A DNA stretch of 64,000 bases from Gammaproteobacteria bacterium (GCA_947480335.1 CANKCB010000005.1:8018-72017); one strand, 5' to 3'; shown: positions 9,495 to 59,494, counted from the stretch's first letter. Made by a program: numbers and translations. The notes: a model not told the origin generated them from the sequence alone.

Positions 9495-10472
9495 ATGAAA
9501 TCACCAGTAAGAATCGCAGTCACCGGCGCCGCAGGGCAGATTGGTTATGCCTTGTTATTCAGACTTGCCGCGGGTGAAATGCTTGGTAAGGATCAACCGG
9601 TCATACTTCAGTTACTTGAGGTCAATGCGGCCTTGAAAGCACTCGAAGGTGTGGTCATGGAATTGCAGGACTGTGCATTTTCAACCTTGGCCGGCGTTGA
9701 AACGACGGATAATCCCGATGTTGCATTCAAGGATGCCGACTATGCCTATCTGGTCGGAGCCAGACCCCGCGGTCCGGGCATGGAACGCAAGGACTTGCTG
9801 GAGGCTAATGCTGCCATTTTTGGCGTACAAGGCAAGGCGCTGAACAAGAGTGCCAGCCGTAATGTGCGGGTACTGGTCGTGGGTAACCCCGCCAATACCA
9901 ATGCATTGATTACGCTGAGTCATACTCCGGATCTGAACCCACGTAATATTACGGCGATGATGCGTCTGGATCATAACCGCGCTGTTGCCCAGCTGGCGGC
10001 CAAAACCGGTAAAACCGTGGATGATGTACGCAAACTGGTTGTTTGGGGAAATCATTCGACAACACAGTATCCGGATATTCATCATACGACAGTCGCCGGA
10101 AAAGCAGCTATGTCACTGGTGGATCAGGCCTGGTATGAAACAGCCTATATTCCGCGTGTTGCCAAGCGTGGCGCAGAAATTATCAATGCCAGAGGCGCAT
10201 CCAGCGCGGCTTCAGCCGCTAATGCTGCGATCGAGCATATGCGTGACTGGGTCAAAGGTACCGGTGACAACTGGGTCAGTATGGGAATCCAGAGTGATGG
10301 ATCGTATGGAATTCCAAAAGGTCTGGTGTATTCGTTCCCGGTCACCTGTGCAGGCAGTGAATACAAGATTGTGCAGGGTTTGGAAATCAATGCTTTCAGC
10401 CGTTCCAGAATGGATGCGACACAAAAGGAACTGGAAGAAGAACGTGATGCTATCAAGAGCTTGCTAGGCTAA
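9495..10472 (+). CDS. mdh: Malate dehydrogenase (LDH-like MDH family)
   Basis: [25 protein letters not shown]... NAD-binding N-terminus; 325 aa; RBS-like AGGAGAAA upstream. Confidence 0.9.
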
Positions 10473-27374: not shown

Positions 27375-27394
27375 TCACCCCTCACGCCTCACAC
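27375..27394. repeat. Short inverted copy of GTGAGGR heptamer repeat (CACCCCTCACGCCTCACAC)
   Basis: Reverse complement is GTGTGAGGCGTGAGGGGTG, the same units as the arrays at 51.0 kb and 56.4 kb. Confidence 0.7.
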
Positions 27395-27418: not shown

Positions 27419-28519
27419 ATGTCAGGCAATACTTTTGGAAAATTATTTACAGTCACAACCTGTGGTGAAAGCCACGGTTTGTCCTATCTTTGTATCGTCG
27501 ATGGTTGTCCTCCCGGAATCGAATTGACCGAGGCAGATATCCAGCAGGATCTGGATCGTCGTAAACCAGGAAAATCACGTCACGTAACCCAGCGCCAGGA
27601 ATCAGATACGGTACGTATCGTTTCCGGCGTATTTGAAGGTAAAACTACCGGAACCCCGATTGGTCTGGTCATCGACAATGAGGATCAGCGTTCGAAAGAC
27701 TATGCAAAGATCAAGGACAGATTTCGTCCTGGTCATGCGGACTACACTTATCTGCAAAAATATGGCATTCATGACTATCGTGGTGGTGGGCGTGCTTCGG
27801 CCCGTGAAACCTGTATGCGGGTAGCGGCTGGCGCCATTGCCAAAAAATACCTGAAAGAAAAAGCCGGGATCGTGGTAAAGGGTTATCTGGCTCAAATCGG
27901 TCCGTTGCATATTGAAATCAAGGACTGGTCAGAGGTGGAAAACAATCCGTTTTTCTGTCCTGATCCGGCACGGGTTGAGGAACTGGAAGCCTATATGGAT
28001 GCGTTGCGCAAGGAAGGTAATTCCATTGGTGCACGTATCAATGTGATCGCAGAAAATATTCCGGTTGGACTGGGTGAGCCGATTTTTGATCGGTTGGATG
28101 CGGATATTGCCAAAGCCTTGATGAGTATCAATGCGGTCAAGGGTGTCGAGATTGGTGCAGGCTTTGCTGCAATTGAACAGAAAGGTACAGTGCATCGTGA
28201 TGAAATGACCCCGCAAGGATTTCTGGGTAATAATTCTGGTGGCATACTCGGTGGCATTTCCAGCGGTCAGGATATTGTGGCCAGTATTGCGCTGAAGCCG
28301 ACTTCCAGTATTCGTCTGCCCGGACAGACAGTTGATATACATGGTGAGGCAGTTGAGGTGGTTACCACTGGACGGCATGATCCCTGTGTCGGAATCCGGG
28401 CTGTGCCCATTGCTGAAGCGATGCTGGCACTGGTCTTGATGGATCACTATTTACGCCATCGCGCACAGAACGCGGATGTTATTCCGCCGGTGCCGGTAGT
28501 ACCCCGCCGTATTGATTAA
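27419..28519 (+). CDS. aroC: Chorismate synthase
   Basis: [21 protein letters not shown]-terminus; 366 aa. Confidence 0.95.
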
Positions 28520-34221: not shown

Positions 34222-34279
34222 TCTTGAACAGGGAGAAATCTGTAAACCGGTCTTGAACAGGGAGAAATCTGTAAACCGG
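34222..34279 (+). repeat. Perfect 29 bp tandem direct repeat x2 (TCTTGAACAGGGAGAAATCTGTAAACCGG) followed by a G8 homopolymer, 15 bp upstream of the amidohydrolase ATG
   Basis: Units at 34222-34250 and 34251-34279 are identical; each contains TTGAAC and TAAACC promoter-like hexamers; G8 at 34278-34285. Confidence 0.9.
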
Positions 34280-48349: not shown

Positions 48350-49528
48350 ATGAACGAAGATTTCCCAAGAATTTCGCGGTTACCGCCCTATGTATTCAGT
48401 ATCGTCAACGATCTGAAAATGCAGGAACGTCATCGTGGTGAGGACATAATTGATTTCGGGATGGGTAATCCCGACCAGCCGGCACCGAAACATGTGGTGG
48501 CCAAACTGATTGAAGCCTCACAGCGCGACGATGTACACCGTTATTCGGTCTCGCGTGGCATACCTCGCCTGCGCCGTGCGATCTGTAACTGGTACAAGTC
48601 AAAATACAATGTGGATCTGGATCCGGAAACCGAGGCAATTGTGACACTGGGATCAAAGGAAGGGCTTGCCCATCTAGCTATGGCGATTGTGGATCGTGGC
48701 GATGCGGTACTGGTACCCAATCCGTCCTATCCGATCCATCCTTATGGATTCATCCTCGCCGGCGCAGATGTGCGTCATGTACCCATCGGCCCGGGTGTTG
48801 ATTTCTTTGCTGAACTGGAAAGTGCTGTGAAAAACAGTTGGCCCAAACCTAAACTGTTATTGCTGAATTTTCCCAGTAACCCGACCACGCAATGTGTGGA
48901 TCTGGCCTTCTTTGAAAAAGTGATCGAGTTTGCCCGCGAACACCAGATCTGGATCGTACAGGATCTGGCTTATGCCGAAATTGTGTTTGATGGGTATGTC
49001 GCACCCTCGATTCTGCAGGTGCCTGGTGCGAAAGAAGTGGCTGTTGAATTCTATACACTGTCGAAGACCTACAATATGCCAGGCTGGCGAGTCGGCTTCA
49101 TGGTCGGCAATCCGGTGCTGGTAAAAGCACTGGCAAAATTAAAGTCGTATCTTGATTACGGTATGTTCACCCCGATACAGGTGGCTTCCATCCTTGCGCT
49201 GGAAGGACCTCAGGATTGTGTGGAGGAAATTCGCATGACCTATCAGAACCGACGTGATGTGTTGTGCGAAGGCTTAAATGCGGCCGGCTGGAAAGTGGAG
49301 AAGCCTCAGGGAACCATGTTTGTGTGGGCACCAATACCGGAGCCGTTTGTTGGCATGGGTTCGCTGGAGTTTTCCAAGCAGATGCTGTTGCAGGCAAAGG
49401 TCGCTGTTTCACCCGGAATTGGTTTTGGTGAGTACGGTGACAAGCATGTACGTTTTGGTCTGATTGAAAATGAACACCGCACCCGTCAGGCGGTGCGTGG
49501 CATACGGGCGATGATGAAGAAATCGTAA
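48350..49528 (+). CDS. alaC: Class I/II aminotransferase, AlaC (YfdZ)-like glutamate-pyruvate aminotransferase
   Basis: Near-collinear match to E. coli AlaC (ISRLPPYVF...[13 protein letters not shown]...[11 protein letters not shown]...[14 protein letters not shown]...HVRFGLIEN). Confidence 0.85.
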
Positions 49529-49553
49529 GGTGTGAAGTGACAGGTGTGAGGAG
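49529..49553 (+). repeat. Degenerate GTGAGG-type heptamer copy directly after the alaC stop
   Basis: GGTGTGAAGTGACAGGTGTGAGGAGT. Confidence 0.5.
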
Positions 49554-49695
49554 TTTGACCACGTCATTCCAGTAACAGCAAGTATCCAGTTGAATTAAAC
49601 TCGCTGATAGCAAGCCTTGATGTCATCTGACAGGTGATTTTACTTTACTGGCTTCCTGCTTTTGCAGGAGTGACGAATAAGGAGCAATAATAAAG

Positions 49696-51006
49696 ATGAA
49701 ACCAGTAAAAATCGGATTATTAGGTCTGGGTACCGTCGGTGGTGGCACAGTCAGTGTCTTGACACGCAATGCCGAAGAAATTGCCCGTCGTGCAGGTCGT
49801 GGCATTATCATCAGTCATGCGGCGGCCAAAGATTACAATCGTGGACTGAAAGGGCTCGACCAGATTGCCCGGATTACAGATGATGCCTACGGTGTAGTAA
49901 ATGATCCGGAAGTGGAAATCGTCGTTGAGCTGATTGGTGGTTACAAGCCGGCATTGGATCTGGTCATGACCGCGATTGCCAATGGCAAGCATGTGGTCAC
50001 CGCCAACAAGGCGTTGATTGCCACCCATGGAAATGAAATTTTTGCAGCGGCACAAAAGCAGGGCGTGACGGTGGCATTTGAGGCGGCGGTAGCCGGTGGC
50101 ATACCGATTATCAAGGCCTTGCGTGAAGGTTTGGCGGCAAATCAGATCGAATGGGCTGCCGGTATCATCAATGGTACCAGTAACTTTATTCTGACCGAGA
50201 TGAAGGATAAGGGTCGGGATTTCGATGATGTGCTCAAGGAAGCACAGGCACGTGGCTATGCTGAGGCCGATCCGACGTTTGATATTGAAGGCGTTGATGC
50301 GGCACACAAGCTGACTATTCTGGCCTCAATTGCGTTTGGTATACCTTTGCAGTTTGACAAGGTATACAAGGAAGGCATCACCGCGATTGAGCGACAGGAT
50401 GTGTCCTATGCAGCCGAGCTCGGCTACAACATCAAATTGCTGGGCATCACCCGCAAGACCGCCAACGGAATTGAATTACGTGTGCATCCTACATTGATCC
50501 CGGAACACCGCTTGATTGCGAATGTGGATGGTGTGATGAATGCAGTACTGGTCAAGGGCGATGCGGTCGGACCGACACTCTATTATGGAGCGGGCGCGGG
50601 TGCTGAACCCACCGCATCTGCTGTGATTGCCGATATCATCGATGTGGTACGTGCTTTAACCACCGATCCGGGCAACCGTGTTCCTCATCTGGCGTTTCAG
50701 CCCAAGTCGATGTCAAACATTGCCATTCTGCCGATGGACGAAGTGCAGACCGGGTACTATCTGCGGGTACATGCGGTAGACAAGCCGGGCGTATTGTCGG
50801 ATGTGACAACCATACTGGGTGATCTCGGTATCAGTATCGAAGCGATTATCCAGAAACAGCCGGACGAAGATGCAACACTGGTCCCCGTTATCTTGTTGAC
50901 ACAGAAAGTGACAGAAAAAAACATGAACGAGGCCATACGCAAGATTGAGGCGCTCGATTCAGTCAGTGGCAAAGTGCGACGGATACGGGTTGAAACATTG
51001 GCGTGA
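49696..51006 (+). CDS. hom: Homoserine dehydrogenase
   Basis: MKPVKIGLLGLGTVGGGT NAD-binding N-terminus; C-terminal ACT domain; followed by thrC. Confidence 0.95.
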   Translation: MKPVKIGLLGLGTVGGGTVSVLTRNAEEIARRAGRGIIISHAAAKDYNRGLKGLDQIARITDDAYGVVNDPEVEIVVELIGGYKPALDLVMTAIANGKHVVTANKALIATHGNEIFAAAQKQGVTVAFEAAVAGGIPIIKALREGLAANQIEWAAGIINGTSNFILTEMKDKGRDFDDVLKEAQARGYAEADPTFDIEGVDAAHKLTILASIAFGIPLQFDKVYKEGITAIERQDVSYAAELGYNIKLLGITRKTANGIELRVHPTLIPEHRLIANVDGVMNAVLVKGDAVGPTLYYGAGAGAEPTASAVIADIIDVVRALTTDPGNRVPHLAFQPKSMSNIAILPMDEVQTGYYLRVHAVDKPGVLSDVTTILGDLGISIEAIIQKQPDEDATLVPVILLTQKVTEKNMNEAIRKIEALDSVSGKVRRIRVETLA

Positions 51007-51013
51007 TTTTAAG

Positions 51014-51086
51014 GAGTGAGGGGTGAGGCGTGAGGGGTGGAAGTAGATGTGAAGAGTGAGGAGTGAGGAGTGAGGGGTGAGGAGTA
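51014..51086 (+). repeat. Tandem heptamer array (GTGAGGR) about 10 units, beginning 8 nt after the hom stop
   Basis: GGAGTGAG GGGTGAG GCGTGAG GGGTGGA ... GTGAGGA GTGAGGA GTGAGGG GTGAGGA. Confidence 0.9.
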
Positions 51087-51134
51087 AAATTCGTCATGAC
51101 CGCAATTTAACAAAGAGCAACTGGCGACAAGATA

Positions 51135-52259
51135 ATGACTACACATTATAAAGGATTGATAGACCGGTACCGCAGCCGCTTGCCGGTGAAAAATGACACG
51201 CGCGTCATCACATTGCACGAAGGCAATACGCCGCTGATACCGTTGGAAAATATTCCCTCAATCCTGCGCAAGGACGTAAAAATCCTTGTGAAGTTTGAAG
51301 GGTTGAACCCGACAGGGTCTTTCAAGGATCGTGGTATGACCATGGCGGTAACGCAGGCGGTTTCGGAAGGATCAAAGGCCATCATCTGTGCGTCGACAGG
51401 TAATACGTCGGCGGCAGCCGCTGCCTATGCCAGCCGTGCCGGCATCCGTTGTTTCGTGCTGATACCTGATGGCAAGATTGCCCAGGGTAAACTGGCTCAA
51501 GCGATGATCAAGGGATCAGTGGTCATCCAGATACTGGGAAATTTTGATGATGGCATGCGACTGGTGAAGGAAGTCGGTGATTCGGCGCCGGTTACGATAG
51601 TCAACTCAATCAATCCTTACCGGATTCATGGACAGAAGACGATTGCATTCGAGATTATCGATGCACTTGGTCGCGCACCCGACTATCACTGTTTGCCGGT
51701 AGGTAATGCCGGCAATATTACCGCGCACTGGCTGGGATATTGTGAGTATGCAGGTATCGCCGCGTATGCAGACAGTTTCCAGACAGAGCAGGGGCCGTAC
51801 AACAAGGACAAGGTGACCACTAAAACCCCTATCATGTGTGGTTATCAGGCCAGTGGTTCAGCGCCGTTCCTGCGAGGGCATCCGATTGATAATCCTGAAA
51901 CGGTGGCCACAGCCATACGTATCGGCAATCCCCAATCCTGGGATCAAGCCTGGACTGCCAGCCGTGATTCAAAAGGCTGGTTTGATGAATTCACTGATGC
52001 CGAAATTCTGGCGACTCAGAAACTGCTGGCCGAGAAAGAAGGAATCTTCTGTGAACCGGCTTCTGCCATTTCAGTGGCTGGTGCGATGAAAGACATCCGC
52101 TCCGGCAAAATTCCGGAAGGCAGTACCGTCGTGTGTACGCTGACCGGGCACGGTTTGAAAGATCCGGACACGGCCATCAAGCAAAGCAGCTCACCGGTCA
52201 TCCGCGTTGAAGCAAATCTCGCGCAGGTGCAGAAGGCGATATTGGATAATCTCAAGTGA
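51135..52259 (+). CDS. thrC: Threonine synthase
   Basis: 374 aa; PLP-lysine context FEGLNPTGSFKDRGM. Confidence 0.95.
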   Translation: MTTHYKGLIDRYRSRLPVKNDTRVITLHEGNTPLIPLENIPSILRKDVKILVKFEGLNPTGSFKDRGMTMAVTQAVSEGSKAIICASTGNTSAAAAAYASRAGIRCFVLIPDGKIAQGKLAQAMIKGSVVIQILGNFDDGMRLVKEVGDSAPVTIVNSINPYRIHGQKTIAFEIIDALGRAPDYHCLPVGNAGNITAHWLGYCEYAGIAAYADSFQTEQGPYNKDKVTTKTPIMCGYQASGSAPFLRGHPIDNPETVATAIRIGNPQSWDQAWTASRDSKGWFDEFTDAEILATQKLLAEKEGIFCEPASAISVAGAMKDIRSGKIPEGSTVVCTLTGHGLKDPDTAIKQSSSPVIRVEANLAQVQKAILDNLK

Positions 52260-52279
52260 GCAGTGAGGGGTGAGCAGTA
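52258..52279 (+). repeat. Short GTGAGG-type heptamer copy overlapping the thrC stop
   Basis: GTGAGCAGTGAGGGGTGAGCAG. Confidence 0.6.
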
Positions 52280-52382
52280 GTATTACTGGATTAATAGGAC
52301 GAAAATGCAAAAATCATGAAATTATTTTTAGATTCAAATACTGGTATTGTTCGAATCAGTACATGAGCGTTATCACAGTTTA

Positions 52383-52406
52383 CCCCTCACTCTTCACGCC
52401 TCGCGC
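52383..52406. repeat. Inverted GTGAGG-type heptamer copy (CCCCTCACTCTTCACGCCTCGCG)
   Basis: Reverse complement of a GTGAGG-type unit array; lies just upstream of the probable start of the next gene. Confidence 0.6.
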
Positions 52407-52418
52407 TTAGTTCACTCC

Positions 52419-53444
52419 ATGCGCAATCTGACCCTGTTCATCCCCGGATTACTCGGGCCCGACACCTATTACTCAGACGATTTTTCCCCGAAGCTGGACG
52501 CAATCGAATCGCTGCTGGCACGTTCGAATCACACACAGCTGAATACACTTTCAATATTTCGGGCGTTGACAGATTTGTCACCTATCCCAGTTGATCCGTT
52601 ACAGGACGTTCCAGTTGCCGCTATTACCCGTCTGTTGGACGATAATGAACGGCCCCAGGGTGTGTGGATGCGTGCCGACCCGGTGCATCTGCGTCCTGAT
52701 CGTGACGGATTGATTCTGATGGATTCATTTATTCTGGGTCTCTCCCAGCATGATGCGCTGGCCATTGCGACCGAAGTAAACAAAGTGTTGTCGCATTATG
52801 GCTGGGTACTCGAAGTACCCTACGAGGATCGCTGGTATATCCGGATGGACAAGGCACCGGAACTGACTACCACAGAACTGCCCGCCATGATCAGCAAGGA
52901 CATCCGTCACCACTTGCCTCAAGGTAAGGATGCCGCGCTGTTTCATAATTTGCTTAATGAAATCCAGATGCAGTTGTTCGACTGTGATGTAAACCAGTTG
53001 CGAGAGAGCAAGGGTGAGTTGCCGGTAAACAGTGTGTGGTTCTGGGGACTGGGTAGCCTGCCCGAACATGTGCGTTGGGACTGGTCTGTGGTGTACAGTG
53101 ATGATGCTTTTGTACGTGGAATGGCCGCCCTGGCCGGCACGCCATGCCATGCTGTACCACCTGATTTTGACACCGTCTTTGCCAATACCCATGAGCAGGA
53201 AAACGTGCTGGTGGTATTGCAGCACTGTCAGGCCCCTGCGCAATACCAGAATATGATGTTATGGCATCAGGCGTTGGAGTTGCTGGAAAATGGCTGGTTT
53301 AAATCAATCCAGGAACATTTGCGCTGGCAGAAGTTACACAATGTGCATATCGTCACCGAAGGGCACCGGTTTAGCACCAGTTGGCTGGGCAAGAAACGGT
53401 TCTGGCGCAAACTCCAGTCTCCAGGCCATTACCGCAATACATGA
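52419..53444 (+). CDS. Conserved hypothetical protein (hom-thrC-X-recJ linked)
   Basis: ~341 aa from MRNLTLFIPGLLGP; no family confidently recognised; its stop overlaps the recJ start (ATGA). Confidence 0.5.
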   Translation: MRNLTLFIPGLLGPDTYYSDDFSPKLDAIESLLARSNHTQLNTLSIFRALTDLSPIPVDPLQDVPVAAITRLLDDNERPQGVWMRADPVHLRPDRDGLILMDSFILGLSQHDALAIATEVNKVLSHYGWVLEVPYEDRWYIRMDKAPELTTTELPAMISKDIRHHLPQGKDAALFHNLLNEIQMQLFDCDVNQLRESKGELPVNSVWFWGLGSLPEHVRWDWSVVYSDDAFVRGMAALAGTPCHAVPPDFDTVFANTHEQENVLVVLQHCQAPAQYQNMMLWHQALELLENGWFKSIQEHLRWQKLHNVHIVTEGHRFSTSWLGKKRFWRKLQSPGHYRNT

Positions 53445-55183
53445 ACGGCACAGGCAGGATCATCCGTCGGCGTTCCGGCAGTTCCGATATCATCTGGCCA
53501 GACCAGATGCATCCGGTTTTACGCCGTGTCTTTGGAGCAAGAAGTGTGGCAACCGCCAACGAGCTCGAATATGGACTGGGTCGATTGCACGGTTTTGACA
53601 GTCTGGAAAATATTTACAGCACCGCCGCCTTACTGGCAGACAGAATCGAGCAGCAAAAATATATACTTATCGTATCCGATTACGATGCCGATGGCGCCAC
53701 AGCCTGTGCGCTTGCCATACGCGGGTTGATCAGTATGGGTGCGGGACGAGTCGAGTATCTGGTTCCGGATCGTTTCAAGCATGGTTACGGACTGAGTCCA
53801 GCCGTGGTCGAGATGGCGATGGATCTGGGACCGGATGTGATTATCACGGTCGACAACGGCATTTCCAGTATAGAAGGAGTGGCGCTGGCACGTTCCAACG
53901 GAGTGGAAGTGATCATCACCGATCACCATCTGCCCGGTAAACGTTTGCCGGATGCCAATGCCATTGTGAATCCAAATCTTCCCGGTGACCGTTTCCCCAG
54001 CAAATGTATTGCTGGAGTAGGCGTAATGTTTTATGTGCTGGCTGCACTGCGTGCTGAATTGAAAAAACGGGACTGGTTTGCCCGGCGCAATCTGGCGGAA
54101 CCCAATCTGGCCGCGATGATGGATCTGGTTGCACTCGGTACCGTTGCTGACGTGGTAGCGCTGGATCATAACAACCGGATCATGGTCGCACACGGTTTGT
54201 CACTGATACGCAGTGGTCGTTGTATACCCGGTATACGGGCCTTGTTTGAAGTAGCGGGCAAGGAACTGAAAAATGTCTGCGCGACCGATATCGGTTTTGC
54301 CGCCGGGCCGAGATTGAACTCGGCAGGCAGACTGACTGATATGAGCCTGGGAATAGAGTGCCTGATCAGTAATGATTTCGAGGCCAGTTACAGTATGGCA
54401 AAGCAACTGGATACGCTGAACAAACAGCGTCGCGAAATCCAGGATGACATGCAGCAGCAGGCCTTGCAGGAAGTCAACCGTATGCATATTGCAATCGACC
54501 GTGACTTGCCGTCCGGCGTCTGTTTGTACAAGGCAAACTGGCATCAGGGTGTAATCGGGATACTGGCCTCCAAAATCAAGGACAGGTTGCAACGTCCGGT
54601 CATTGCGTTTGCACGCGATGAAGAAGGCTTGTTCAAGGGATCTGCACGATCGATTCCCGGTATACACATACGCGATGTGATCGATCGTATCGCCACGGAA
54701 CAGCCGGATTGGATAATAACCTTTGGCGGTCATGCGATGGCTGCCGGTTTGACGATACCCGAACAAGCTTATGGTGGATTTTCGCGCATGTTCGATCTGC
54801 TGGTAGCCGAGCTGATGCGTATCAATGGCTTTGATTCCGATATCTATTCAGACGGTGAGCTCAGTATGGAAGAGTTTACCCTTGAAGTGGCCGAACTGCT
54901 GCGCGATGCTGGTCCCTGGGGACAGGGTTTTCCTGAACCGGTATTCGATGGACGATTTGAAGTGGTGGACAAACGGATCGTGGGAGAAAACCATCTGAAA
55001 TTGAAAGTCCGTGCCGCCGGCGGCAAGCGTGAGATCGATGCGATCGCGTTTAATACAACCAACCGTTCCTGGCCTAAAGGGACAACGTTTATTCATGCCG
55101 CTTATCGACTCGACATCAACGAGTATATGGGCAGACGTACACCACAACTGATCGTTGAATATCTGGAGCCGGTGGTAATGTAA
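53441..55183 (+). CDS. recJ: Single-stranded-DNA-specific exonuclease RecJ
   Basis: DHH motifs (ILIVSDYDADGATA, ITDHH) and the DHHA1 domain; start at MNGTGRII (53441). Confidence 0.9.
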   Translation: MNGTGRIIRRRSGSSDIIWPDQMHPVLRRVFGARSVATANELEYGLGRLHGFDSLENIYSTAALLADRIEQQKYILIVSDYDADGATACALAIRGLISMGAGRVEYLVPDRFKHGYGLSPAVVEMAMDLGPDVIITVDNGISSIEGVALARSNGVEVIITDHHLPGKRLPDANAIVNPNLPGDRFPSKCIAGVGVMFYVLAALRAELKKRDWFARRNLAEPNLAAMMDLVALGTVADVVALDHNNRIMVAHGLSLIRSGRCIPGIRALFEVAGKELKNVCATDIGFAAGPRLNSAGRLTDMSLGIECLISNDFEASYSMAKQLDTLNKQRREIQDDMQQQALQEVNRMHIAIDRDLPSGVCLYKANWHQGVIGILASKIKDRLQRPVIAFARDEEGLFKGSARSIPGIHIRDVIDRIATEQPDWIITFGGHAMAAGLTIPEQAYGGFSRMFDLLVAELMRINGFDSDIYSDGELSMEEFTLEVAELLRDAGPWGQGFPEPVFDGRFEVVDKRIVGENHLKLKVRAAGGKREIDAIAFNTTNRSWPKGTTFIHAAYRLDINEYMGRRTPQLIVEYLEPVVM

Positions 55184-55295
55184 GGGCACAGCATGCTATG
55201 CCCCTACAATACCTACAGTCGTCATTATATTTCTGTATCGCCCTCCCGCCCTGTAGTAGAATTCGCCGCAACCTATTTGTTACTGGAATCAACTC

Positions 55296-56394
55296 ATGCT
55301 GGAAATTACCTCTGTCATTGCGCATATAAAGGATATCAAGGGAAGGACTGAAGCCCTGAGGAGGTATCTTTGAATACGATCTCAAATCGGAACGACTGGT
55401 AGAAGTCACTCGCGAACTGGAATTACCCAACGTCTGGGATGAACCGGAACGGGCACAGGCACTGGGCAAGGAAAGGGCCACGCTGGAAAAAATCGTCAAA
55501 ACCCTCACCGACCTGAACGCCGGTATCGAGGATGCCGAACAGCTGCTGGCAATGGCCAAAGAAGAAAACGATGCGGAAACGGTCGCTGGTGTCGATCGCG
55601 ATCTGGATCAACTGCAAAAGCATCTCGAAGATCTGGAATTTCGCCGCATGTTTTCCGGCGAGATGGACCCGAACAGCGCCTTTCTGGATATTCAGTCCGG
55701 CTCCGGTGGCACTGAAGCTCAGGATTGGGCGGAAATGTTGCTCCGCATGTACACCCGTTGGGGTGAAGCGCACGGCTTTGGCATCGAATTGGTCGAAGTC
55801 TCTCCGGGTGAGGTTGCCGGTATCAAGAGTGCGACCATCAAATATAACGGTGAGTATGCCTATGGCTGGCTGCGGACCGAAACCGGAGTGCATCGACTGG
55901 TGCGTAAATCCCCGTTTGATTCCGGTAATCGTCGTCATACCTCGTTTGCTTCAGTATTTGTGTCTCCGGAAATTGATGACGATATCAATATCGATATCAA
56001 TCCGGCCGACCTGCGTATTGATACCTATCGTGCCAGCGGTGCCGGTGGTCAGCACGTGAACAAAACCGATTCCGCCATCCGTATTACACATATCCCGAGC
56101 GGGATTGTGGTGCAATGTCAGTCGGATCGATCCCAACACAAGAATCGCGACAGCGCCCACAAGCAGTTACGTGCGAAGCTATATGAAATGGAAATGCAAA
56201 AGCGTATGGTCGCGCAGCAAAAACTGGAGGATACCAAGTCTGATATAGGCTGGGGTAGCCAGATCCGCTCGTATGTGCTCGACCAGTCGCGTATCAAGGA
56301 TTTACGCACCGGTATTGAAAACACCAATACCCAGTCGGTGCTGGACGGTAATCTCGACAAGTTTATGGAAGCGAGTTTGAAGGCGGGGTTATAG
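55296..56394 (+). CDS. prfB: Peptide chain release factor 2, with programmed +1 ribosomal frameshift at CTT TGA A (55368-55374)
   Basis: Frame-0 start [25 protein letters not shown] stops at TGA (55371-55373). The +1 frame continues [34 protein letters not shown]..., collinear with E. coli RF2. Internal SD-like AGGAGG lies 3 nt upstream of the shift site. SPF and GGQ motifs are present. Confidence 0.9.
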
Positions 56395-56395
56395 A

Positions 56396-56530
56396 GTGTG
56401 AGGGGTGAGGAGTAAGGGGTGAGGAGAGGAAGGTGAGGGGGGCGAGGAGAGGAAGGTGAGGGGTGAGGCGTGAGGGGAGAAGTGAGGAGTGAGGCGTGAG
56501 GGGAGAAGTGAGGAGTGAGGGGTGAGGAGT
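56396..56530 (+). repeat. Tandem heptamer array (GTGAGGR and variants), about 19 units, starting 2 nt after the prfB stop
   Basis: GTGTGAGGGGTGAGGAGTAAGGGGTGAGGAGAGGAAGGTGAGGGGGGCGAGG...GTGAGGCGTGAGGGGAGAAGTGAGGAGTGAGGGGTGAGGAGT. Confidence 0.9.
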
Positions 56531-56565
56531 CTGGAAGATAAGTTAGAGTCCACAAAAATTGAAAC

Positions 56566-56645
56566 CGTCATTCCCGCGAAGGCGGGAATCCAGTAGACTC
56601 AATCCTGTTCTCCTGTGGGTCACTTTCACCCGTAGGACGAAAGTG
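56566..56645. repeat. REP-like paired hairpins upstream of lysS (ATTCCCGC-GAAG-GCGGGAAT and CACTTTC-N10-GAAAGTG)
   Basis: A 15-nt core of the first hairpin recurs in inverted orientation at 63256-63270. Confidence 0.6.
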
Positions 56646-58627: not shown

Positions 58628-59494
58628 TTAGTTCTGTATTCTGAAATCTACTCGTCTGTTTTGCGCACGGCCTGCATCGGTATCGTTGCTGGCCACAGGT
58701 GAACCTTCACCCATACCCGATGCTGAAAGGCGATTGGCAGCAATTCCATGATTGACAAGGAAGTTCACCACCGTTTCCGCACGACGTTGTGACAAAGCCA
58801 TGTTGTAAGCGTCAGAGCCACGGCTGTCAGTATGGCCTTCAATCTTGACGATGATTCCGGCATTATCCTTCAGCATCTTCACGGCCTCATTCAGCTTGCC
58901 TGTCGCAGTTGAGGTCAAGTCAGACTTGTCATAGGCAAAATTCACCCCTTCCAGGCTGAAGATTACATGACAACCGCGTTCGTTAACGGCCTGTCCCATC
59001 GGTGTATTCGGGCAATCATCGCTGCCATCAATCACACCATCCCCGTCAGTGTCCAGCGGGCAACCCGTGCTATTCACGGCTACACCACGCGGCGTATTCG
59101 GGCAACGGTCATTGTTGTCGGTTACGCCATCGCCATCACTGTCGAGCGGACAACCGGAAGCATTCACTGGCGTACCACGCGGAGTATTCGGACAGTTGTC
59201 CATATCATCCATCACACCATCGCCATCGCTGTCCATCATCTTCTTTTGTGCAACCGGTGTTGTCTTTTCATCCTGACACAAGTAGTAGCCAACGAGCCCA
59301 CCGAGTATGGCACCACCACCTATCGCTGCCTTGTTATTCGAAGCCAGAGCACCGGCACCGGCACCCGTTGCCGACATAGCCAAAAAGCATATCCCTTCTT
59401 TGGTAATTGAGCTGTCGCTACCGCCCGTGGTCGCACACCCTGACATAAAACTTGTGATACAAATCAATGCTATTAAAGTGAATTTACTCTTCAT
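58628..59494 (-). CDS. OmpA-family lipoprotein with thrombospondin type-3 (Ca-binding) repeats
   Basis: Lipobox FMSGCATTG and a Gly-zipper segment; three DxDxDGxxDxxDxCPNTP repeats; C-terminal OmpA domain (TDSRGSDAYNMALSQRRAETV). Confidence 0.85.
   Translation of the reverse strand: MKSKFTLIALICITSFMSGCATTGGSDSSITKEGICFLAMSATGAGAGALASNNKAAIGGGAILGGLVGYYLCQDEKTTPVAQKKMMDSDGDGVMDDMDNCPNTPRGTPVNASGCPLDSDGDGVTDNNDRCPNTPRGVAVNSTGCPLDTDGDGVIDGSDDCPNTPMGQAVNERGCHVIFSLEGVNFAYDKSDLTSTATGKLNEAVKMLKDNAGIIVKIEGHTDSRGSDAYNMALSQRRAETVVNFLVNHGIAANRLSASGMGEGSPVASNDTDAGRAQNRRVDFRIQN

Follow-up and report, generated by a model that had tools for sequence, protein, structure and literature searches.

Repetitive extragenic palindromic (REP) elements and bacterial interspersed mosaic elements (BIMEs) of enterobacteria and pseudomonads are extragenic, often lie just past stop codons inside operons and form hairpins in mRNA; a REP is an imperfect palindrome of 20-40 nt whose sequence, including a GTAG head, is conserved and which a RAYT (Y1 transposase) spreads. 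In heterocystous cyanobacteria (Calothrix), short tandemly repeated repetitive (STRR) heptamers form tandem intergenic arrays with several unit families per genome, and we know of no stop-codon rule reported for them. Heptanucleotides are the commonest long simple sequence repeat (LSSR) in prokaryotes, for which polymerase slippage has been proposed (Mrazek, Guo and Shah 2007, as summarised in PMC4679880). Direct repeats of the heptamer TAACTGA occur in marine Beggiatoaceae, some cyanobacteria and Bacteroidetes (MacGregor 2015, PMC4679880). G-rich heptameric repeats were described by Rehm et al. 2015 (PMC4692102), with the units GGGAATC in Xanthomonas and GGGGA(C/T)T in Nostoc. They are enriched in the non-coding DNA that separates co-oriented open reading frames (ORFs), lie ‘almost exclusively’ closer to the 5' neighbouring ORF regardless of its orientation, and form 70-75 convergent inverted pairs per Xanthomonas genome; they are transcribed, differ in length between Xcc and Xac, and were assigned no function (PMC4692102). 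Here, we describe arrays of another heptamer, GTGAGGN, that abut the stop codons of four co-oriented genes in a 64,000-nt stretch of DNA from a Gammaproteobacteria bacterium (GCA_947480335.1, CANKCB010000005.1:8018-72017), hereafter called the window. The word GTGAGG is absent from Rehm et al. (PMC4692102), and an exact-word literature search for the unit gave nothing relevant. An initial annotation of the window had taken such arrays to fall outside any named repeat class in Proteobacteria, which is wrong, given the repeats with the same placement in Xanthomonas and Nostoc (PMC4692102). We assign the GTGAGGN arrays with high confidence to the long heptanucleotide simple sequence repeats, as a new unit of the G-rich heptameric class known from those two genera. 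As to their origin, we consider it somewhat probable that they are slippage-born repeats, subsequently filtered by selection to the positions where they are tolerated.

Arrays were read directly in the sequence and with Tandem Repeats Finder (TRF), and gene calls for the window were taken from identical metagenomic contigs, plus NCBIfam. The four plus-strand arrays and two inverted copies are as follows.

49529..49553, plus strand: degenerate GTGAGGN-type array of ~3 units (one exact hexamer and two near-matches), beginning on the base right after the alanine transaminase stop.
51014..51086, plus strand: GTGAGGN array of ~10 units in two blocks parted by a degenerate stretch, 7 nt past the hom stop, with no inverted partner.
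52256..52279, plus strand: short G-arm GTGAGCA GTGAGGG GTGAGCA GTA, which supplies the thrC stop and is the 5' arm of a long-range hairpin.
52383..52406, minus strand: inverted copy, C-rich on the plus strand, ending ~13 nt before the ATG at 52419; 3' arm of the thrC hairpin.
56396..56530, plus strand: the longest array, ~19 units with 23- and 26-nt higher-order blocks, 1-3 nt past the prfB stop, unpaired.
27375..27394, minus strand: short inverted C-rich copy of 2 exact units in the prmB-aroC intergenic region, ~25-45 nt upstream of the aroC start at 27419.

TRF recovers the hom array at 51012-51085 (period 7, 10.9 copies), the thrC array at 52255-52278 (3.4 copies) and the prfB array at 56398-56527 (18.9 copies, with higher-order periods of 14, 23 and 26). 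The double unit GTGAGGNGTGAGG, with at most 1 mismatch, occurs 19 times against 0.24 expected from dinucleotide shuffles, and 17 of the 19 are on the plus strand. Position 7 is variable across units (A=13, G=11, C=3, T=1), so that GGGG is found in only ~40% of them and not every 7 nt, as had been stated initially. By NCBIfam, the genes upstream of the four arrays encode alanine transaminase, homoserine dehydrogenase (hom), threonine synthase (thrC) and release factor 2 (RF2; prfB), and aroC was identified in the same way. The standard programmed +1 frameshift of prfB (frame-0 ATG at 55296; Shine-Dalgarno (SD)-like AGGAGG followed by TAT CTT TGA, 55359-55373) confirms the identity of RF2. The arrays start 0 nt from the aminotransferase stop (TAA, 49526-49528), 7 nt from that of hom (TGA, 51004-51006), -3 nt from that of thrC (TGA, 52257-52259, inside the first array unit) and 1-3 nt from that of prfB (TAG, 56392-56394). 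For the window alone, the combined probability of these offsets is 7.6e-5 (Fisher; null of uniform placement within each intergenic region). All copies in the window are intergenic or overlap a stop codon at most. The initial annotation thus located the four arrays correctly, both by direct reading and by TRF, and was right that they abut the stops of four co-oriented genes in gene orientation. The two inverted copies that it listed are also real, and both adjoin start codons, those of aroC and of the gene after thrC, not 3' ends. Its observation that no canonical hairpin-plus-U terminator lies downstream of hom, thrC or prfB was borne out, with no plus-strand hairpin-plus-T terminator found after any of the three. 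A scan of the whole window with Rfam covariance models gave zero family matches, and beyond their units the window arrays have nothing in common, with no shared loop, flank or target duplication.

The same placement is seen in other bacteria. One genome per species was scanned for three consecutive units, which gave at least 120 loci and ~1 Mb of sequence, a sample and not a census. The matches listed include Betaproteobacteria (Sulfuricella, Thiobacillus and others), other Gammaproteobacteria, Planctomycetota, Cyanobacteria, Bacteroidota, Firmicutes, Chloroflexota, Acidobacteriota, Gemmatimonadota and others. That an ORF ends at an array was dropped as evidence, being partly automatic (TGA in each unit, with period 7 covering all frames), and called genes, stops outside the arrays and a comparison of convergent genes were used instead. 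Among the matches listed, sense-strand G-rich arrays begin at or within the stop codon of the upstream gene, and many loci read stop codon, (GTGAGGN)3-4, spacer, (NCCTCAC)3-4, start codon. Of 15 arrays between convergent genes, 11 are no more than 15 nt from the stop of the gene to which they are sense, and 0 are that close to the stop of the other gene (p = 0.001). Pairs with the G-arm before the C-arm outnumber the reverse by 36 to 2 in the sampled loci (p = 5e-9); a G-arm-first pair reads alike on both strands, so the gene orientation of pairs is automatic and it is the polarity that is the non-trivial fact.

Each array was also oriented by its G-richer strand, and the distances to both neighbouring genes were compared. 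Among the matches listed, GTGAGGN arrays are nearer to the 5' neighbour in 51 cases and to the 3' neighbour in 14 (median distances of 6 nt versus 69 nt; p ~4e-6), and for other G>C-skewed heptamers the counts are 53 and 15 (medians of 14 nt versus 106 nt; p ~4e-6). Heptamers that follow the rule without a stop codon or SD-like sequence include GTGGAGT, AGGCGGG, AGTGGCG and GAGGAGG. Because such unrelated, stop-free heptamers sit likewise, the TGA, GTG or SD content of GTGAGGN does not explain its position and was rejected as the cause of placement. Within the sample the rule is general: G-rich strands begin (5' end) at an ORF boundary and nearly all pairs have the G-arm in front, for GTGAGGN and unrelated heptamers alike, and this generality, together with the behaviour of the stop-free units, narrows the possible explanations. 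In the ~1 Mb of loci with GTGAGGN, period 7 makes up 249 of the 527 TRF rows among the matches listed, with a further 67 rows at period 14. The 120 period-7 arrays that use other units (for example CTTCGAC x25, TTCACGC x29 and GAGCCAC x14.6) comprise dozens of unrelated units. Contig ends coincide with 19 of the 148 GTGAGGN arrays listed; short-read assemblies were broken there, and the arrays are also a source of mis-assembly.

In two Sulfuricella metagenome-assembled genomes, a conserved loop core, AAGTCAAAACCCGC, lies between the arms of paired arrays, at several loci and in either orientation:

L106 1628-1722: Sulfuricella AAGTCAAAACCCGC element.
L106 2503-2596: Sulfuricella AAGTCAAAACCCGC element.
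L084 5858-5948: Sulfuricella AAGTCAAAACCCGC element.
L110 1059-1128: Sulfuricella AAGTCAAAACCCGC element.

These elements fill successive intergenic regions from stop to start and fold with z = -6.4. The Sulfuricella element looks like a dispersed element akin to a REP or a miniature inverted-repeat transposable element (MITE), whose inverted termini are heptamer arrays. The initial annotation had named a REP/MITE family with terminal inverted repeats as the identification that would overturn its reading; no such family was found in the window, and Sulfuricella, with paired arrays around a conserved loop, comes part of the way.

Near-identical strains vary fastest at the arrays. The hom protein is present on at least 24 public contigs, of which eight with identical flanks were compared; they are 99.5-100% identical outside the arrays. 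The hom array is 7 nt (one unit) shorter in L008, and the prfB array is shorter than in the window by 26 nt in L001 and L003 and by 23 nt in L002 and L004. Unit number had been noted initially to differ between sites, and the comparison of unit counts extends this to strains. The 26-nt prfB block is the sole difference from the window in L001 (21.3 kb) and L003 (14.0 kb). Over the 8.1 kb of L008, 4 of the 11 substitutions and the only indel fall inside the ~80-nt hom array. The aminotransferase array (49529-49553) is invariant in the 8 strain-level contigs. The arrays are the fastest-evolving positions of the region and, as the most variable sites between otherwise identical strains, they can be used as strain markers.

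More distant relatives carry the arrays patchily. The host lineage is uncultured and its relatives are labelled Gammaproteobacteria by NCBI. Gene order is kept in the orthologous loci (aminotransferase, hom, thrC, a gene of unknown function, recJ, prfB, lysS), and the junctions compare as follows.

L129 and L135, 94% hom identity: no arrays at hom, thrC or prfB.
L130 and L132, hom identity of 83% and 82%: GTGAGG-type arrays 0-10 nt past the thrC and prfB stops.
L134 and L136, hom identity of 79% and 80%: no arrays; hom-thrC junctions of 6-8 nt.

The hom array is missing in all six. The hom, thrC and prfB junctions in the 94% relatives measure -1 to 32 nt (-1 nt for hom-thrC in L129) or hold REP-like hairpins, which in L135 take the place of arrays; L135 also has a ~12-unit degenerate array flush with its aminotransferase stop. 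Further arrays lie at lysS and at the next gene in L130. The patchiness among relatives points to junctions that have been repeatedly colonised and cleared. Since near-identical strains vary fastest at the arrays and the closest relatives are without those of hom, thrC and prfB, the arrays are hypervariable and dispensable. An origin from an ancestral GTGAG...CTTCAC + T5 terminator after thrC, as in the array-free L134 and L136, finds no support in the folds there (z = -1.4 and -0.9), which leave that pairing unused.

Other repeats share this intergenic DNA. A second family consists of intergenic hairpins, GTCATTCC...GGAATCCAG, with a window copy at 56567-56592, 37 nt past the prfB array. Three copies in L135 (7876-7914, 9326-9352 and 14541-14579) take up junctions that have heptamer arrays in the window, namely those after the aminotransferase gene, hom and prfB. 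The hairpin is also found in L056 (2032-2058) and L077 (6144-6170), and its occurrence in Ignavibacteria and Desulfohalobiaceae loci means that it is not lineage-specific. Another inverted-repeat family, GACAGGATTAACAAGATTTACA ... TGTAAATCTTGTTAATCTTGT, lies in intergenic DNA of the 82-83% relatives, sometimes beside heptamer arrays:

L130 9776-10000: GACAGGATTAACAAGATTTACA ... TGTAAATCTTGTTAATCTTGT site.
L130 11312-11494: GACAGGATTAACAAGATTTACA ... TGTAAATCTTGTTAATCTTGT site.
L132 11312-11426: GACAGGATTAACAAGATTTACA ... TGTAAATCTTGTTAATCTTGT site.
L132 12558-12745: GACAGGATTAACAAGATTTACA ... TGTAAATCTTGTTAATCTTGT site.

In the 82% relative L132, a perfect (GAGCCAC) x14.6 array at 9861-9962 precedes the hom start by ~40 nt. 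Its G-richer strand runs antisense to hom, in keeping with the placement rule although the unit is unrelated.

Among the junctions of the window, the thrC pair alone is predicted to fold better than shuffled sequence. In both the minimum-energy and the centroid fold its G-arm pairs with 52375-52404 (-50.5 kcal/mol, z = -3.33, 0 of 200 shuffles as stable), and the two arms are scored as an inverted repeat in the window. The hairpin spans from the stop to ~17 nt before the next start, in the window as in L130, where the orthologous thrC junction has the same geometry of G-arm and C-arm (z = -6.0); the partner arm has decayed in L132 (z = -1.4). No T run follows the 3' arm of the thrC hairpin. 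The hom and prfB arrays have no fold better than shuffles (z = +0.36 and -0.38), no partner arm and no self-complementarity. The G-quadruplex potential raised in the initial annotation held in part: G4Hunter scores are moderate (1.19 for the hom array; 1.43 for the prfB array, with a maximum of 1.65 in a 52-nt stretch), but a canonical four-tract G3+ motif is absent with loops of N1-7 or N1-12, and only two-tetrad motifs were found. G-quadruplex formation by the hom and prfB arrays is thus possible and not strongly predicted. Unit counts of 3, 10 and 19 in the window indicate no preference for four units.

The arrays are also unusual in their translation signals. With period 7 and a TGA in each unit, stops in all three frames are met within 18 nt of array. 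The arrays are the densest anti-SD-complementary sequence of the window (mean of -9 to -10 kcal/mol against a window mean of -2.6, for an assumed 16S tail, no rRNA gene lying in the window). Of eight confirmed starts, seven (48350, 51135, 52419, 53441, 56691, 27419 and 26391) are weakly or not complementary to the 16S 3' tail (-0.9 to -4.8 kcal/mol), and that of hom is the only one with a clear AAGGAG; the strongest SD-like sequences of the window follow stop codons and do not precede starts. On the opposite, C-rich strand the arrays are free of stops, which gives rise to spurious long ORFs such as 56389-56571 on the minus strand. This 60-aa ATG ORF through the prfB array was rejected as a gene, being of low complexity (P, S, L, T, H) and uncalled in any related contig. 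ORFs of this kind probably give rise to false ‘hypothetical proteins’ in any genome with such arrays.

The gene after the thrC hairpin is a 341-aa ORF (52419-53444) between thrC and recJ. It is conserved and syntenic in all relatives examined, matches nothing in Pfam or NCBIfam, and has the C-rich arm but no Shine-Dalgarno sequence ahead of its start; its stop overlaps the recJ start by 4 nt (ATGA).

If the arrays are products of slippage and selection, they would arise and resize by slipped-strand mispairing in replication, in blocks of 7, 14, 23 or 26 nt. They would not be essential, and selection would clear them from harmful places. Positions within genes would be excluded, since period 7 breaks the frame and the unit carries TGA. 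G-rich RNA over a downstream ribosome-binding site or promoter would be excluded too, and unpaired C-rich RNA past a stop would be disfavoured. The survivors would be arrays with the G-rich strand as sense strand, flush with a stop, or with the C-rich strand just before a start. Where both arms come to lie in one intergenic region, as between thrC and the next gene, a long hairpin would form, probably a structural barrier or insulator of REP type in the mRNA. The hom and prfB arrays would remain as unpaired, purine-rich, C-poor 3' tracts with stops in all frames and moderate G-quadruplex potential, likely tolerated and perhaps mildly protective of the upstream mRNA, though not required.

Several points weigh against this account. 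Under a filter of tolerance alone, it is not obvious why arrays should begin only a few bases from the stop, when any position in the upstream half of the intergenic region would do. Four of the five or six copies of the window lie within 7 kb, and the hom-lysS cluster also carries arrays in two 82-83% relatives; such clustering may point to arrays that selection has long maintained. The strong 36:2 polarity also needs a reason, and those offered here, stops in all frames for this unit and avoidance of exposed C-rich RNA, are presumptive. The loci of the cross-genome sample were chosen for containing GTGAGGN. The crude gene caller applied to them recovered ~92% of stops, with ~13% extra calls, when checked against the collection's own calls, and it over-extended starts on the stop-free C-rich strand. 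About one-third of arrays fall ‘inside’ a called ORF, 25 of 39 of them no farther than 150 nt from the earliest start available on the stop-free strand; these mostly fit over-extended start calls, and a few remain unexplained. Within the window, moreover, the G-rich sense orientation is confounded with positive GC skew and hence the probable leading strand. That the rule follows ORF boundaries across genomes speaks against an effect of the replication strand alone.

The main rival is selection for the arrays as a post-stop RNA boundary element, in which a G-quadruplex or hairpin blocks 3'-to-5' exonucleases or RNase and stabilises the upstream cistron, as REP does in enterobacteria; we regard it as possible but doubtful. 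It would account for the sense-strand placement flush with stops, for the high stability of the thrC hairpins of the window and L130 and of those in Sulfuricella, for G4Hunter scores of 1.2-1.65 and for the lack of intrinsic terminators at the hom, thrC and prfB ends, and it agrees with the recurrence of arrays at thrC and prfB in the 82-83% relatives and their clustering in the hom-lysS cluster of three lineages. G-quadruplex-type tracts protected mRNA from decay in E. coli and C-rich i-motif tracts did not, as measured in 5' untranslated regions (PMC11541907), which speaks for a boundary element and lends indirect support to the slippage-and-selection account as well. Nevertheless, the closest relatives have no arrays at the corresponding junctions, nothing varies more between strains than array copy number and sequence, a canonical G3+ quadruplex motif is lacking, the hom and prfB arrays are without predicted secondary structure, and unrelated heptamers are placed likewise. 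In addition, an E. coli REP less than ~15 nt from a stop reportedly lowers expression of the upstream gene (Liang, Rudd and Deutscher, in 2015), which we count against a boundary element. Absence in the closest relatives and hypervariability weaken both a terminator substitute and a 3' stabiliser, as proposed in the initial annotation. As a terminator substitute, the G-rich non-template strand would pause or stop RNA polymerase (G-quadruplex, R-loop), or the C-rich antisense strand would serve as a Rho loading site against antisense transcription. Rho loading sites are C-rich and G-poor, and the antisense strand of the prfB array agrees with this (~60% C and ~2% G over 135 nt); the missing intrinsic terminators past hom, thrC and prfB also fit. 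However, the genes are co-oriented, tightly syntenic and -1 to 8 nt apart in relatives, so that termination is not ancestral and would be polar, and C-rich sense copies sit just upstream of starts, where a Rho site would do harm. We therefore hold a terminator substitute to be very unlikely.

A role in ribosome handling has a slightly better, though still slim, chance. The array would be a translational backstop that holds or passes on terminating ribosomes, and its paired form would bring the stop beside the next start for coupling. The unit is suggestive in this respect, combining TGA, a purine tract that matches the anti-SD 3' end of 16S rRNA and a GTG that overlaps the TGA, with all-frame stops within 18 nt, as is the concentration of anti-SD-complementary sequence in the arrays while seven of the eight checked starts are without a Shine-Dalgarno sequence; in the window and in L130 alike, the thrC hairpin also reaches from the stop to a point ~17 nt short of the next AUG. 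Yet the same rule is obeyed by GTGGAGT, AGGCGGG, AGTGGCG and the published GGGAATC (PMC4692102), which have neither stops nor SD-like sequence; downstream starts lie 48-160 nt past the unpaired arrays, the 16S tail had to be assumed in a window without an rRNA gene, and close relatives dispense with the arrays. Mobility, as a REP/MITE-like element with heptamer-array termini, is suggested by Sulfuricella, with its paired arrays around a conserved AAGTCAAAACCCGC core at several loci in both orientations, and by the G-arm/C-arm pairs common across phyla among the matches listed. For the window it appears very improbable, a shade more so than termination: the arrays have no common loop, flank or target duplication, the two long ones are without a partner arm, and strains differ by unit-block indels, not by presence or absence of whole elements. 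Finally, unit number varies between strains, as it would at phase-variable contingency loci that switch expression, an idea that the initial annotation had entertained for these slippage-prone sites. But the arrays lie past the stops of housekeeping genes, where a gain or loss of 7 to 26 nt leaves reading frames and any recognisable promoter spacing untouched, which gives a contingency role with hardly any probability. Rehm et al. likewise disfavoured phase variation for their own repeats (PMC4692102).

A broader proposition is that G-arm-first, purine-rich heptamer arrays are a selected post-stop module across bacteria and not mutational debris, which we think unlikely. If true, the module would manage terminating ribosomes at cistron boundaries and keep Rho off the untranslated spacer, while its paired form would fold the spacer away and set the stop beside the next start, a structural translational coupling. 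In that case, both the 36:2 polarity and the placement flush with stops in >10 phyla would be signatures of function.

Two other tandem repeats were found in the window by TRF, one with a 90-nt period (2.3 copies, 71% matches) at 59026-59235 and the other a perfect 29-nt tandem duplication at 34222-34279.

Compared with known repeat classes, the arrays show the tandem iteration, intergenic location, inverted pairs, copy-number variation and stop/start placement of heptameric simple sequence repeats and LSSR5-11. They do not behave as contingency simple sequence repeats, as they follow housekeeping stops without flanking promoter elements, and no intrinsic terminator is seen at hom, thrC or prfB. 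The thrC pair and the Sulfuricella elements are structurally comparable to REP/BIME, being extragenic hairpins past stops, whereas the arms in the window are tandem heptamers, the long arrays are non-palindromic and the window holds no dispersed consensus; in particular, the hom and prfB arrays contain no 20-40 nt palindrome with a consensus. The common internal sequence and target-site duplications of a MITE are likewise not found in the window, and a conserved loop core occurs only in Sulfuricella. The STRR heptamers of Calothrix differ in their units from GTGAGGN. TAACTGA repeats resemble GTGAGGN as abundant intergenic heptamers that contain stop codons, occur patchily in distant lineages and are placed relative to translation signals; in contrast, they are present in 2-6 copies directly upstream of starts, are not G-rich and have a proposed role in translation initiation (PMC4679880). 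The LSSR5-11 of Mrazek 2007, as far as they are summarised in PMC4679880, share with GTGAGGN the heptameric unit, a scatter across phyla and a mostly non-coding location, for which general slippage expansion and not a specific role was proposed; that summary describes neither stop-codon placement nor a GTGAGGN unit.

The repeats of Rehm et al. remain the closest. GTGAGGN differs from them in carrying TGA, GTG and SD-like GAGG, where GGGAATC has no stop; in having GG or GGGG per unit only, with no canonical G3 quadruplex motif and no four-unit preference; and in its host, a different, uncultured lineage, with the unit seen in many phyla. Both have a 7-nt unit with a G run, are intergenic and mostly between co-oriented ORFs, and form convergent pairs able to fold into stem-loops; in both, copy number varies between close relatives, and neither is tied to surface or virulence genes. 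As that class was already published with the same placement, the window adds to the repeat class described in 2015 a new unit and a new host lineage, not a new class.

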